Source: a virus
Virus record (IMG/VR): IMGVR_UViG_3300027702_000001
Length of the DNA stretch: 64,000 nucleotides
Direction: 5' to 3' (one strand)
Of the stretch, positions 32,982-49,747 are shown in pieces. The notes under the pieces were generated by a model. The model made no database searches. It was not told where the DNA came from and was given only the letters and a program-made list of their open reading frames with translations. Positions within the stretch are counted from its first letter, which is position 1. Each line of letters begins with the position of its first letter. Both the position numbers and the translations under genes were made by a program.

Positions 32982-33062
32982 TTAGGTAGGTCCTGTTGTA
33001 ATCCCCCAGTAACATAACAAGGAGATGGATGAGAATAAAGCAATTGCTTTGACGTAAATCAT
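32982..33062 (-). CDS. Possible 26-aa hydrophobic peptide
   Basis: MIYVKAIAYSLIHLLVMLLGITTGPT; coupled to neighbours. Confidence 0.3.
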   Translation of the reverse strand: MIYVKAIALFSSISLLCYWGITTGPT

Positions 33063-33229
33063 TGATTCACTTCTTCGGGTGTTCCTATCATATCAAACTT
33101 TGTGATTCCGTGGTCCATTTTGAGGATACGCTCAATATGTCCCTTCACTTCCCAAGGAAACTTCGTCTCCGCTTCTACGAAAACTTCACCAACATCAGGG
33201 ATGTTTACTTTTTGCTTCCAGAGTTTCAT
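33059..33229 (-). CDS. Hypothetical protein (56 aa)
   Basis: Hand translation MKLWKQKVNIPDVGEVFVEAETKFPWEVKGH...; ATGA coupling to talC. Confidence 0.5.
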   Translation of the reverse strand: MKLWKQKVNIPDVGEVFVEAETKFPWEVKGHIERILKMDHGITKFDMIGTPEEVNQ

Positions 33230-33894
33230 TCGTCAACGTGCAATTGTTCTTGTAGTTGTGCCCAGTCTTTTTCAAATCTTTCTAGACCATTGTCTGTCAA
33301 GATATGGTTGTACATTTTATTGAACACTTGATATGGCATAGTCACAATGTCTGCTCCTGCATCAAAACAACGTGCGACTTGGTGCACTTCGCGTACAGAT
33401 GCAGCAAGGATCTCTGTCTCTACATCGTGCATACGATAGACTCTAGAGATTGCTTGGACTAGTGATATACCTGAGAAAGAATTGTCATTCAGTCTGCCAA
33501 CAAAAGGAGACATCATAGATGCTCCTGCCTTTGCAGCGAGGATTGCTTGTGAGACTGAGAAGATTAGGGTTACGTTGGTACTGATACCATCGGAGGAGAG
33601 ATCACCACAGGCAATCAGTCCCTCCCTTGTACAGGGAAGTTTAACTGTGATGTTGGGGGCAATACTATAGTATTCATTTGCTGCTTCAAGCATTTCTTCT
33701 GCTGTATCGCCCATAACTTCTGCAGAGATTGAAGCATCCCAAGAAAAAAGATCACTGATTTCTTGGATCACGTCTCTAGGTTTCCTACCTGCCTTCAACA
33801 TAAGAGAAGGGTTAGTAGTTACACCATCAATGAGACCAGTTTCCATTGCGTGATGGATAAGTTCGGGGTCCGAACAATCTAGAAAGATTTTCAT
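33226..33894 (-). CDS. talC: Transaldolase (TalC/FSA family)
   Basis: KIFLD, GVTTNPSL, ITVKLP, TNVTLIFS, SPFVGRL. Confidence 0.95.
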   Translation of the reverse strand: MKIFLDCSDPELIHHAMETGLIDGVTTNPSLMLKAGRKPRDVIQEISDLFSWDASISAEVMGDTAEEMLEAANEYYSIAPNITVKLPCTREGLIACGDLSSDGISTNVTLIFSVSQAILAAKAGASMMSPFVGRLNDNSFSGISLVQAISRVYRMHDVETEILAASVREVHQVARCFDAGADIVTMPYQVFNKMYNHILTDNGLERFEKDWAQLQEQLHVDE

Positions 33895-33935: not shown

Positions 33936-33962
33936 TAAAAAAACACCCTTGAAAAGGGTGTG
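33936..33962 (-). terminator. Terminator of the riboswitch operon
   Basis: CACCCTT TTC AAGGGTG plus 7 T. Confidence 0.75.
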
Positions 33963-33974
33963 CGTTTCACGAAG

Positions 33975-34133
33975 TTATTTGACCGAAGTGTTTTGATTGA
34001 ATGACAAGTTTAACTTTACCCATTTGGCATAGTACACTCCCCGATAGCAAAGAAAGGCGAATACCTTTTCGGGGTTGTGCTTCTCCTCGTCATACTCTGG
34101 CAACCCATAATCTATTGAGATCTTGAGTCGCAC
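33975..34133 (-). CDS. YRG-motif microprotein (DUF4278-like), 52 aa, GTG start
   Basis: Hand translation MRLKISIDYGLPEYDEEKHNPEKVFAFLCYRGVYYAKWVKLNLSFNQNTSVK. Confidence 0.55.
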   Translation of the reverse strand: MRLKISIDYGLPEYDEEKHNPEKVFAFLCYRGVYYAKWVKLNLSFNQNTSVK

Positions 34134-34137
34134 GGTC

Positions 34138-34245
34138 CTAACCCCACTGGTGCAAGAATTTTACTTCTGCATAGATTAAGGTTAGGAACGTGGCAGACCC
34201 CAATGTTATGAGTCCCACCACCATTATCGGCGATGATAGATCCAT
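34138..34245 (-). CDS. 35-aa single-TM microprotein
   Basis: Hand translation MDLSSPIMVVGLITLGSATFLTLIYAEVKFLHQWG. Confidence 0.5.
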   Translation of the reverse strand: MDLSSPIMVVGLITLGSATFLTLIYAEVKFLHQWG

Positions 34246-34246
34246 C

Positions 34247-34390
34247 TTAACTCTTTGATGCGAACTTGCGTTCAACTTTGATGCCTCTGTACATCAACTC
34301 GTAGTTACGGTTTGATGATGCTTCGGCAAGTACCTTTGCTTTGTACTCTTTTGCGTTATACTTAACGCCTCTGTAAGTGATTAGTTCCAT
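34247..34390 (-). CDS. DUF4278-like microprotein (47 aa)
   Basis: MELITYRGVKYNAKEYKAKVLAEASSNRNYELMYRGIKVERKFASKS; two YRG motifs; AGGAG SD. Confidence 0.75.
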   Translation of the reverse strand: MELITYRGVKYNAKEYKAKVLAEASSNRNYELMYRGIKVERKFASKS

Positions 34391-34424
34391 TGAATTACTC
34401 CTAAAGTAGTTGGATTTTTAGGTC

Positions 34425-34671
34425 CGTTCCTTTAGTCGTTTGCGTCCCACGGACATTGAGGAGTTGCCTCCTTAATGGTTTGAACGATCTCAACCTTTAC
34501 CTGTTCAGATAATTGTTCGTGCTTAGCGACTCTACCTAACAGTACAGCAGCATCTACACAATGGAGATCTGAATACGCTAAAAGCATTAGATGCATTAAC
34601 ATAATTTTGGTCCAAACATAGGGATGAACGCTCCGTTCCGCGACTTACTTGCGTCTCTTGCGAGATGAACG
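34425..34671 (-). ncRNA. Tandem glutamine riboswitch-like aptamers (glutamine-II/downstream-peptide type)
   Basis: Aptamer 1 CGTTC-A-TCTC(GCAA)GAGA-CGCA-loop-GAACG; aptamer 2 CGTTC-A-TCCC[insert]GGGA-CGCA-loop-GAACG; directly upstream of the DUF4278-like gene. Confidence 0.75.
34432..34602 (-). CDS. 56-aa ORF nested inside aptamer 2
   Basis: Hand translation MLMHLMLLAYSDLHCVDAAVLLGRVAKHEQLSEQVKVEIVQTIKEATPQCPWDAND. Confidence 0.6.
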   Translation of the reverse strand: MLMHLMLLAYSDLHCVDAAVLLGRVAKHEQLSEQVKVEIVQTIKEATPQCPWDAND

Positions 34672-34697
34672 TATGGATATGATAACATATCCTGTAT

Positions 34698-34704
34698 TAT
34701 TTAG
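34698..34704 (-). promoter_or_regulatory. Late promoter variant (CTAAATA) upstream of the aptamers
   Basis: CTAAATA followed by perfect hairpin GGATATG TTAT CATATCC. Confidence 0.55.
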
Positions 34705-34758
34705 CAATGTTTTTCTTTTTGTAACGTTTCCTTTTGGTACGGTACTGTTGCTGAGTTC

Positions 34759-35388
34759 CTATGCCTTTATCTCGTTTAAGATCCCGCTTAAGTTGCCTGA
34801 GGAACTTAAGATGTAGTTTAAATTGATTATGCATCGATAGTCATTGTACTGCGGATTACTGCTCGCGTGAAAATTGTGACCATCAAAGATAACAAACCTT
34901 CCTTGACGTGGTTCGATCTTAGTTTTCATCGTCAGTTTTTTACGTGATCCATCATACGTTTCATTGAAGAAGAACGTAGGACCATCCGAGTCATTCACAT
35001 AATACAACAACGTCATATGTGGAAAATCATAATCCACGTGTGGTGTATGGTATAAATGCTTTGACTCTTTTCTAGTTAATAGATTAATTTTGATACGTCT
35101 GAACTTTTCAAAGTCTCCAAGTTCATCGGAAAAGTTTTCAGATATATGTTTCCACAAAGGTTCGACAACAATATCCCAAGCGTGTTGGGAAGAGATCTCT
35201 CCTTGATTGTTTACTACTGTGTGTTGAAACTGAGGATCCTCCCCCGACATTTCATCGGGGATAGAATCATTGAACTTAGGATCATACCCAGTTGTTTCAG
35301 TAATCATATACCAAGGCCAATAAGGACTATTCAATAGTCTTGCCTTGATGGGTTCCGACACAGAGGTCGGGACTTCACCAATAAACAT
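34759..35388 (-). CDS. 2OG-Fe(II) oxygenase
   Basis: HTPHVD, TLLYYVNDSDGPT, FDG..FHASS, RCIINLN. Confidence 0.85.
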   Translation of the reverse strand: MFIGEVPTSVSEPIKARLLNSPYWPWYMITETTGYDPKFNDSIPDEMSGEDPQFQHTVVNNQGEISSQHAWDIVVEPLWKHISENFSDELGDFEKFRRIKINLLTRKESKHLYHTPHVDYDFPHMTLLYYVNDSDGPTFFFNETYDGSRKKLTMKTKIEPRQGRFVIFDGHNFHASSNPQYNDYRCIINLNYILSSSGNLSGILNEIKA

Positions 35389-49528: not shown

Positions 49529-49553
49529 AGACCTGATTATGTGTGGTGTGTGA

Positions 49554-49718
49554 GGGAGGTTGGATTACTGTGTACCAACAAAAGATGGGCATTACTACAG
49601 AGTAAATACATCTTTGCCTAAGACCCGATTGGTAAATCGATTCTACTTTCGTAGCAGCACCACCTGTGTCTTATCACCTTAACCAGCAATATGCCAGTAA
49701 GTTTATTCAGTCACTCCC
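49554..49718 (-). ncRNA. Large structured RNA, probably the manA motif
   Basis: GGGAG/CTCCC closing stem; internal helices TAAGAC/GTCTTA, CTAC-GAAA-GTAG, CGATT/AATCG, AAAGATG/CATCTTT, GTTGG/CCAAC; no ORF; family name recalled, not searched. Confidence 0.65.
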
Positions 49719-49747
49719 AGTAAAAGAAGCGTCCCTCTCTTACAAAT

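Follow-up and report, generated by a model that had tools for sequence, protein, structure and literature searches.

Between the ribonucleotide reductase genes and talC on a stretch of cyanophage DNA lie three open reading frames (ORFs) of fewer than 60 amino acids each. The locus raises the question of whether frames so short are genes, whether a glutamine-sensing RNA governs them as one unit, and what their products might do in the cyanobacterial host. The stretch that we analyzed, hereafter the window, comprises 64,000 nt of viral DNA (IMG/VR record IMGVR_UViG_3300027702_000001) whose closest DNA matches are T4-like cyanomyoviruses of Synechococcus and Prochlorococcus; all features discussed here lie on the minus strand. 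We consider it likely that this T4-like cyanomyovirus has a self-contained transcription unit of ~740 nt whose coding body is positions 34390-33975 and in which a host-type promoter, aptamer 1, aptamer 2 around a gene that we call ORF-A, the genes ORF-B, ORF-C, and ORF-D, and a terminator follow one another in minus-strand order. An initial annotation had proposed a riboswitch-led microprotein operon at this position. Our analysis supports that proposal and adds a fourth conserved gene of the same unit, ORF-A, which had been overlooked; the layout of the operon is well supported.

Relatives of the locus were sampled in two ways. A 25-base block between ORF-A and ORF-B, identical across all phages first aligned and belonging to the 3' half of aptamer 2, was used as the query in a search of viral contigs, and it is invariant in at least 120 contigs that represent 110 distinct loci (L numbers below). 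A second sample was picked solely by the protein encoded downstream of the block and yielded 55 distinct upstream regions, 54 of which carry the block or a close variant.

Genomic setting and transcription

The operon had been placed beside talC and the nrd genes, which is accurate with one refinement. On one side it is followed by talC (33226-33894; E 1e-55), while on the opposite side a 2OG-Fe(II) oxygenase gene (34759-35388) intervenes before nrdB, with nrdB and nrdA lying beyond it. The order nrdB, small ORFs, talC is also annotated in the phages S-SSM4, P-TIM40, and S-SSM5, and the RefSeq label of the ORF-B homolog in the latter two is "DUF4278 domain-containing protein". Gene neighborhood is the one basis for linking the operon to dNTP synthesis, a link that the initial annotation had drawn. 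Other features of the region include a 56-aa ORF directly 3' of talC (33059-33229) with no Pfam match, and Rfam searches of the window also returned a manA RNA, a PhotoRC-II RNA, and two tRNAs. In P-TIM40 (L002:2019-2213) the interval from the DUF4278 gene to talC is occupied by a manA RNA (141.7 bits), which replaces ORF-C and ORF-D; the manA RNA of the window sits elsewhere (49549-49742).

A sigma-70-type promoter (34679-34707; TTGCTA, 17 nt, TG-TATCAT) ends seven bases before aptamer 1, and 75 of the 110 related loci have a counterpart that stops 7-9 nt short of their first CGTTCA. The -10 box of the window promoter is located inside an inverted repeat (34692-34675). The same arrangement was observed in 71 of the 75 loci, where the arms of the repeat vary yet stay complementary (e.g., GGTC-TATAAT-AGACC). 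The repeat may serve as the operator of a dimeric regulator. At the other end, the terminator reported initially was recovered as an intrinsic terminator (33936-33961, or 33943-33961 as stem plus T-run) with an 8-bp stem, a 3-nt loop, and a T-run (fold z-score -3.05).

Two metatranscriptome contigs of 692 and 684 nt, from two marine runs belonging to different studies, cover positions 33959-34650 and 33968-34651 with 0 mismatches, and in the same two runs talC and the oxygenase gene are without cover. These RNA contigs fit a separate, well-expressed unit. Logan contigs of this kind cannot prove RNA ends, and their 5' ends (34650-34651), which lie some 20 nt downstream of the predicted start, may be break points in the assembly graph at a repeat common to several phages.

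Coding potential of the small ORFs

The three ORFs following the aptamers were found on the minus strand with the contents first ascribed to them: ORF-B (34247-34390) encodes 47 aa with two YRG motifs, ORF-C (34138-34245) encodes a 35-aa transmembrane peptide, and ORF-D (33975-34133) encodes 52 aa with a single YRGxxY motif, YRGVYY. It might be argued that they are chance frames within a structured non-coding leader or trailer, given that every ORF is shorter than 60 aa, that ORF-C has no database family, and that ORF-D has a GTG start. We regard this as highly improbable. ORF-B and ORF-D match phrog_5049 (E 1.2e-20) and phrog_6192 (E 7.2e-24), respectively, and ORF-B, ORF-C, and ORF-D each form a conserved family over many cyanophage contigs (alignments A6, A9, and A8), with motifs kept and gaps of whole codons only among 16-19 diverse sequences per family. 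When each of the four ORFs is compared with its closest relative, substitutions fall mainly at third codon positions, and several RefSeq phage records list homologs of the small ORFs as genes.

The initial annotation described two DUF4278-like proteins, and profile comparison upheld this for ORF-B, with a weak case for ORF-D. ORF-B matches Pfam DUF4278 (PF14105) with 24.1 bits (E 4.8e-5), slightly under the gathering score of 25.3 bits, and all 19 family members match the profile at E up to 0.01, the best at 1.2e-9. Most near homologs in a large protein collection, encoded on phage-sized contigs, carry a precomputed PF14105 label, and the neighbors of ORF-B in the Atlas are DUF4278 clusters. 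Because the family matches PF14105 and its near homologs are labeled accordingly, we assign ORF-B to DUF4278. Both of its YRG motifs are invariant in the family alignment (A6), the first having the form YRGxxY and the second YRGxxV. An AlphaFold2 model of moderate confidence (pLDDT 69) folds the protein as a hairpin-helix-hairpin with the YRG motifs at the turns. A Foldseek search of this model against the PDB gave no structural neighbor (nothing below E 5), and PDB sequence-profile searches with alignments A6, A7, and A8 returned chance matches only; NCBIfam and PADLOC held no match for any of ORF-A to ORF-D.

A double-YRG protein is encoded by the first ORF 3' of aptamer 2 at every locus examined among the 110. 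Two types were identified, the 47-aa type of the window (23 distinct sequences) and a 54-55-aa type that starts with MNTL (78 distinct sequences), of which 22 of 24 members tested match PF14105 (best E 6.5e-5). In the MNTL type (55 aa; L020:8451-8615 and about 78 other loci), His18 and His43 are invariant and Cys47 is nearly so. This set of residues may form a metal site, which would be absent from the window-type protein.

ORF-C encodes a predicted single-pass membrane micropeptide, 35 aa from its ATG, with one hydrophobic span (best 19-residue hydropathy window 2.03). It belongs to a conserved membrane-peptide family, with members of about 30 aa, that is found in 30 of the 110 loci and is characterized by the motif (L/I)(I/V)Y(G/A)E..LL with invariant Tyr and Glu. 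The protein-family libraries searched gave no match, nor did tblastn against phages, probably due to low-complexity masking. The ORF-C homolog of S-SSM4 (NC_020875; L001:1924-2016) is unannotated in its RefSeq record.

ORF-D was found in 19 of the 110 loci, 17 of which also carry ORF-C. The window's copy has no Pfam match, while 4 of 16 relatives match PF14105 weakly (best E 0.0055). Profile-profile comparison with hhalign aligned ORF-D to DUF4278 at 82-84% probability over the YRG segment only, and in an exhaustive search the ORF-D profile recruited one true DUF4278 protein (P0181; E 2.5e-7). Taken together, these sequence comparisons suggest a weak and distant tie to DUF4278, through the YRG segment only. 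The AlphaFold2 model of ORF-D (pLDDT 68) is mostly helix, which is at odds with a hairpin reading of the YRG motif, and the Atlas search gave no usable match. Matches of the ORF-D profile to DUF5122 beta-propeller repeat proteins were set aside, since they look like a resemblance between repeated hairpins and not kinship.

Predicted tandem aptamers and an enclosed gene

That aptamers precede the ORFs, as was initially proposed, is indicated by sub-threshold Rfam matches together with strong comparative evidence. Aptamer 1 (34634-34671) is a complete local aptamer in which P1 is formed by CGUUC (34671-34667) and GAACG (34638-34634), and the P1a hairpin UCUC-GCAA-GAGA (34665-34654) is followed by the core CGCAAGUAAGUCGCG. 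Its Rfam scores are 24.9 bits for Glutamine (34630-34673; gathering score 35) and 24.7 bits for Glutamine-II (34627-34674; gathering score 33). Neither aptamer of the window attains the gathering score of its Rfam family (RF01739 or RF01704), and the split aptamer 2 is unscorable as one piece. S-SSM4, P-TIM40, S-SSM5, and S-SKS1 carry the aptamer-1 element in the syntenic position, again with sub-threshold Rfam matches. P1a of aptamer 1 covaries: among 48 distinct compact forms the mean stem is 5.75 bp, compared with 2.76 bp after permutation (0 of 2000 permutations). With P1 (CGUUC:GAACG), the P1a helix, and the conserved purine-rich core all present and supported by covariation, we interpret the element as a putative glutamine riboswitch.

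Directly 3' of aptamer 1 is the 5' half of aptamer 2 (34617-34630), which reads CGUUCA-UCCC, a bulged U, and AUG. Its 3' half (34424-34451), reading CGU-GGGA and then CGCAAACGAC-UAA-AG-GAACG-G, is found 170 nt away at the end of ORF-A. ORF-A (34432-34602; 56 aa) matches phrog_504 (E 9.8e-19) and has two conserved Cys residues and the C-terminus WDAND. The whole gene sits in the P1a loop of aptamer 2, and the 3' half of the aptamer doubles as its last five codons and stop. Among 91 distinct homologs, the ORF-A stop coincides with the UAA or UGA of the aptamer in 90 and the WDAND ending is kept in 84; with codons drawn at the frequencies of the window, GAC-GCA-AAC-GAC would be chosen with a probability of about 0.028 per lineage.

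Aptamer 2 is split by an ORF in 96 loci, and in nine others the same two halves form a compact, ORF-free aptamer with a tetraloop-sized spacer. These compact forms score 30.9-34.1 bits against Rfam Glutamine, with one tandem reaching 41.4 bits. The long-range P1a pairing shows compensatory change across 143-203 nt, the combinations in the sample picked by downstream protein only being UCCC/GGGA (26), UCCU/AGGA (4), UCUA/UAGA (2), GAUU/AAUC (1), and CCCC/GGGG (1). An internal CGTTCA (34488-34483; a 15.9-bit Rfam match) was considered as a partner within aptamer 2 and rejected, as it is not conserved in relatives. Some RNA-contig joints skip 171-174 nt between the aptamer-2 halves; splicing was rejected as their explanation, the joint sides measuring only 24-29 nt, and the joints are consistent with other phages in those samples having aptamers of the compact, ORF-free form.

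Enclosure of a gene is also seen in aptamer 1, which is split in 31 of the 110 loci (L018:7821-8018, L021, L028, L036, and 27 others) by an ORF of ~66 aa. Its product has a hydrophobic N-terminus and two Cys residues, and hhalign relates it to ORF-A at 78.8%; by this sequence comparison it is a likely ORF-A paralog. The stop codon of the 66-aa ORF pairs with bases beside its start codon, at the base of the aptamer stem. Pairing in these split forms is consistent throughout (UCU with AGA in 14 of 14, UCC with AGG in 17 of 17), and none of 2000 permutations gave a stem as long as that observed.

The two aptamers are interlocked. The 3' P1 strand of aptamer 1 is complementary to the 5' P1 strand of aptamer 2, forming a potential inter-aptamer hairpin in which the inter-aptamer pair is G:C in 99 loci, is changed to a compensatory C:G in five, and is mixed in none. 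Because these P1 strands are complementary and change together, both aptamers would compete with their joint hairpin. Five loci (L043, L064, L066, L076, and L081) carry GCAACG and CGUUGA, which keeps the inter-aptamer hairpin and leaves both P1 helices mismatched; the aptamer fold is therefore not always favored. These loci may represent detuned or disabled switches.

A 7-codon mini-ORF (34596-34619) starts at an AUG that is conserved in other phages, and its stop overlaps a shifted ORF-A start (ATGTTAA). The mini-ORF is specific to the lineage of the window and L005-L010, and in the window lineage ORF-A has no obvious Shine-Dalgarno sequence.

Expression platform and predicted regulation of ORF-B

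Aptamer 2 ends 33 nt 5' of the ORF-B start, and the expression platform (34401-34436) consists of a 6-bp occluding helix in which CUAAAG (34436-34431) pairs with CUUUAG (34406-34401). The first strand belongs to the core of aptamer 2 and holds the ORF-A stop, while the second overlaps the ORF-B Shine-Dalgarno sequence UAGGAG (34403-34398). The helix is present in minimum-energy folds of the leader. It is pair-compatible in 109 of the 110 loci, with a covarying pair that is A-U in 55, G-C in 42, G.U in 12, and A.C in one; loci with a UGA stop have CUUCAG in place of CUUUAG as the partner strand.

Experiments have shown that glutamine riboswitches of both host types act as ON switches, ligand binding presumably displacing a structure that masks the ribosome-binding site (PMC6212724; PMC6698751). 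By analogy, a switch that turns ORF-B on at high glutamine is plausible. At low glutamine, the CUAAAG/CUUUAG helix would hide the ORF-B Shine-Dalgarno sequence; once glutamine binds, those nucleotides would become part of the folded aptamer, leaving the site free. ORF-B would then be translated, followed by ORF-C and ORF-D through translational coupling, which is suggested by the intergenic gaps of only 1 and 4 nt (the ORF-C ATG begins one base past the ORF-B stop, and ORF-D starts 4 nt past the ORF-C stop). Ribosomes terminating at the ORF-A stop, which lies in the helix, would open it as well, so that ORF-A translation would be a second input.

The same geometry could be taken to mean that the helix is a coupling device only, that translation of ORF-A is all that ORF-B synthesis requires, and that glutamine acts upstream, on ORF-A alone. 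In 90 of 91 homologs the 5' strand of the helix includes the ORF-A stop, and a ribosome terminating there must melt the helix. However, the same covarying helix is kept in compact forms that have no ORF-A (e.g., L020, L034, and L045), in which only the aptamer can open it, and coupling therefore cannot be its sole role; we judge the coupling-only explanation to be unlikely. We favor the ON switch for ORF-B, and we tentatively hypothesize a two-input translational gate, new for riboswitches, in which ribosome traffic on the loop gene and glutamine binding would jointly determine production of the YRG microproteins and membrane peptide, which in turn might re-wire host nitrogen assimilation through the glutamine synthetase (GS) or PII network.

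Relation to known glutamine riboswitches

The arrangement has precedents in cyanobacterial hosts. In Prochlorococcus MED4, PMM1846 (the Yfr6 ORF) exemplifies the host glutamine-II (Downstream-peptide, RF01704) and DUF4278 pairing, in which the aptamer lies directly 5' of a short YRG/DUF4278 gene, as in the phage. ORF-B likewise answers to the description of a short repeated-YRG protein encoded directly 3' of a putative glutamine aptamer. The host and phage aptamers have in common a CGCA-type core and a GGAACGG 3' strand, and the phage switch is likened to the host one, which is translational and ON (PMC6212724). The phage version differs in that it consists of two interlocked tandem aptamers, both scoring under the Rfam gathering threshold, in that its aptamer closes around a 56-codon gene, and in that its target gene heads a three-gene micro-operon with a membrane peptide.

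The gifB leader of Synechocystis, a type-1 aptamer (RF01739) that controls IF17, resembles the phage element in its P1 (CGUUC:GAACG) and P1a hairpin, in governing a DUF4278-containing protein, and in the presumed opening, by the ligand, of an inhibitory duplex at the ribosome-binding site. In contrast to gifB, the phage aptamers are without the P3 hairpin of the type-1 consensus and have CGCAA in place of CGGAA, and the phage protein corresponds to the DUF4278 part of IF17 only, without its IF7-like GS-binding C-terminus.

Records already exist of cyanophage matches to glutamine riboswitches and of DUF4278 genes in phages. The glnA RNA matches in cyanophages (e.g., S-CREM1, PMC9964418) and the RefSeq DUF4278 proteins of P-TIM40 and S-SSM5 represent the same element, gene family, and nrdB...talC neighborhood, with the RNA or the protein given singly in those listings and entries. 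In the searchable literature we found no account of the constant pairing of aptamer and DUF4278 gene in phages, of the three-gene micro-operon with a membrane peptide, of the covarying expression platform, or of a gene nested in an aptamer. The last of these indicates that one loop of a metabolite aptamer can accommodate an entire translated gene, which bears on the interplay of riboswitches and translation.

Potential roles of the YRG microproteins

ORF-B and ORF-D are probably viral versions of the host's riboswitch-coupled YRG microproteins, which would act on host nitrogen-status signaling when glutamine is plentiful. A more specific proposal casts ORF-B, and perhaps ORF-D, as inactivating factors of the IF17 kind, which would bind host GS and inhibit it at high glutamine. 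ORF-B belongs to DUF4278, a domain found in IF17, is preceded by a putative glutamine riboswitch as gifB is (PMC6212724), and is small and basic (11 K+R vs 5 D+E), as inactivating factors are; moreover, Klähn et al. suggest the same role for short host homologs. Nonetheless, we consider GS inhibition doubtful. DUF4278 is the N-terminal moiety of IF17, which aids stability and is dispensable for GS inactivation, and the residues critical for GS binding reside in the C-terminal IF7-like part that is missing from ORF-B (PMC6316151, PMC6212724), whose 47 aa are covered end to end by a DUF4278-type alignment with no IF7-like C-terminal region. Searches of ORF-B against Pfam, NCBIfam, and PDB sequences gave DUF4278 only, with no family or structure of GS-inactivating factors. 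Furthermore, IF-type control of GS had previously been excluded for marine picocyanobacteria, the hosts of the phage, although co-evolved partners were left possible (PMC6316151).

Another potential mechanism is mimicry of the PII (GlnB) T-loop, whereby YRGxxY hairpins would compete for PII partners or modifying enzymes and uncouple host nitrogen signaling. The motif occurs in 355 of 429 Downstream-peptide ORFs and is identical to that of PII (Weinberg et al. 2010, Additional file 1); it is found in ORF-B, as the first motif, and in ORF-D, and YRG falls on a hairpin turn in the ORF-B model. Yet the likeness is limited to these six residues, the second ORF-B motif is YRGxxV, and no match to PF00543 was obtained at E up to 10, so that we view PII mimicry as distinctly unlikely. 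We return to the broader reading of ORF-B and ORF-D as viral counterparts of the host microproteins, which probably act on nitrogen-status signaling.

Among the genes of marine picocyanobacteria that still lack an explanation, those for riboswitch-coupled YRG/DUF4278 microproteins rank with the most abundant. That the phage owns copies under predicted glutamine sensors of its own, together with a conserved membrane peptide and a second YRG protein, suggests a module worth hijacking in infection, and a search for the target could make use of this small and highly expressed cassette. If it is true that the proteins act on GS or PII, they would constitute a new class of viral auxiliary regulator in ocean nitrogen metabolism.

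As a separate observation on the host side, the DUF4278 gene SYNWH7803_RS10040 was one of the genes up-regulated at the earliest time point in a cyanopodovirus infection of Synechococcus WH7803 (PMC7885011).
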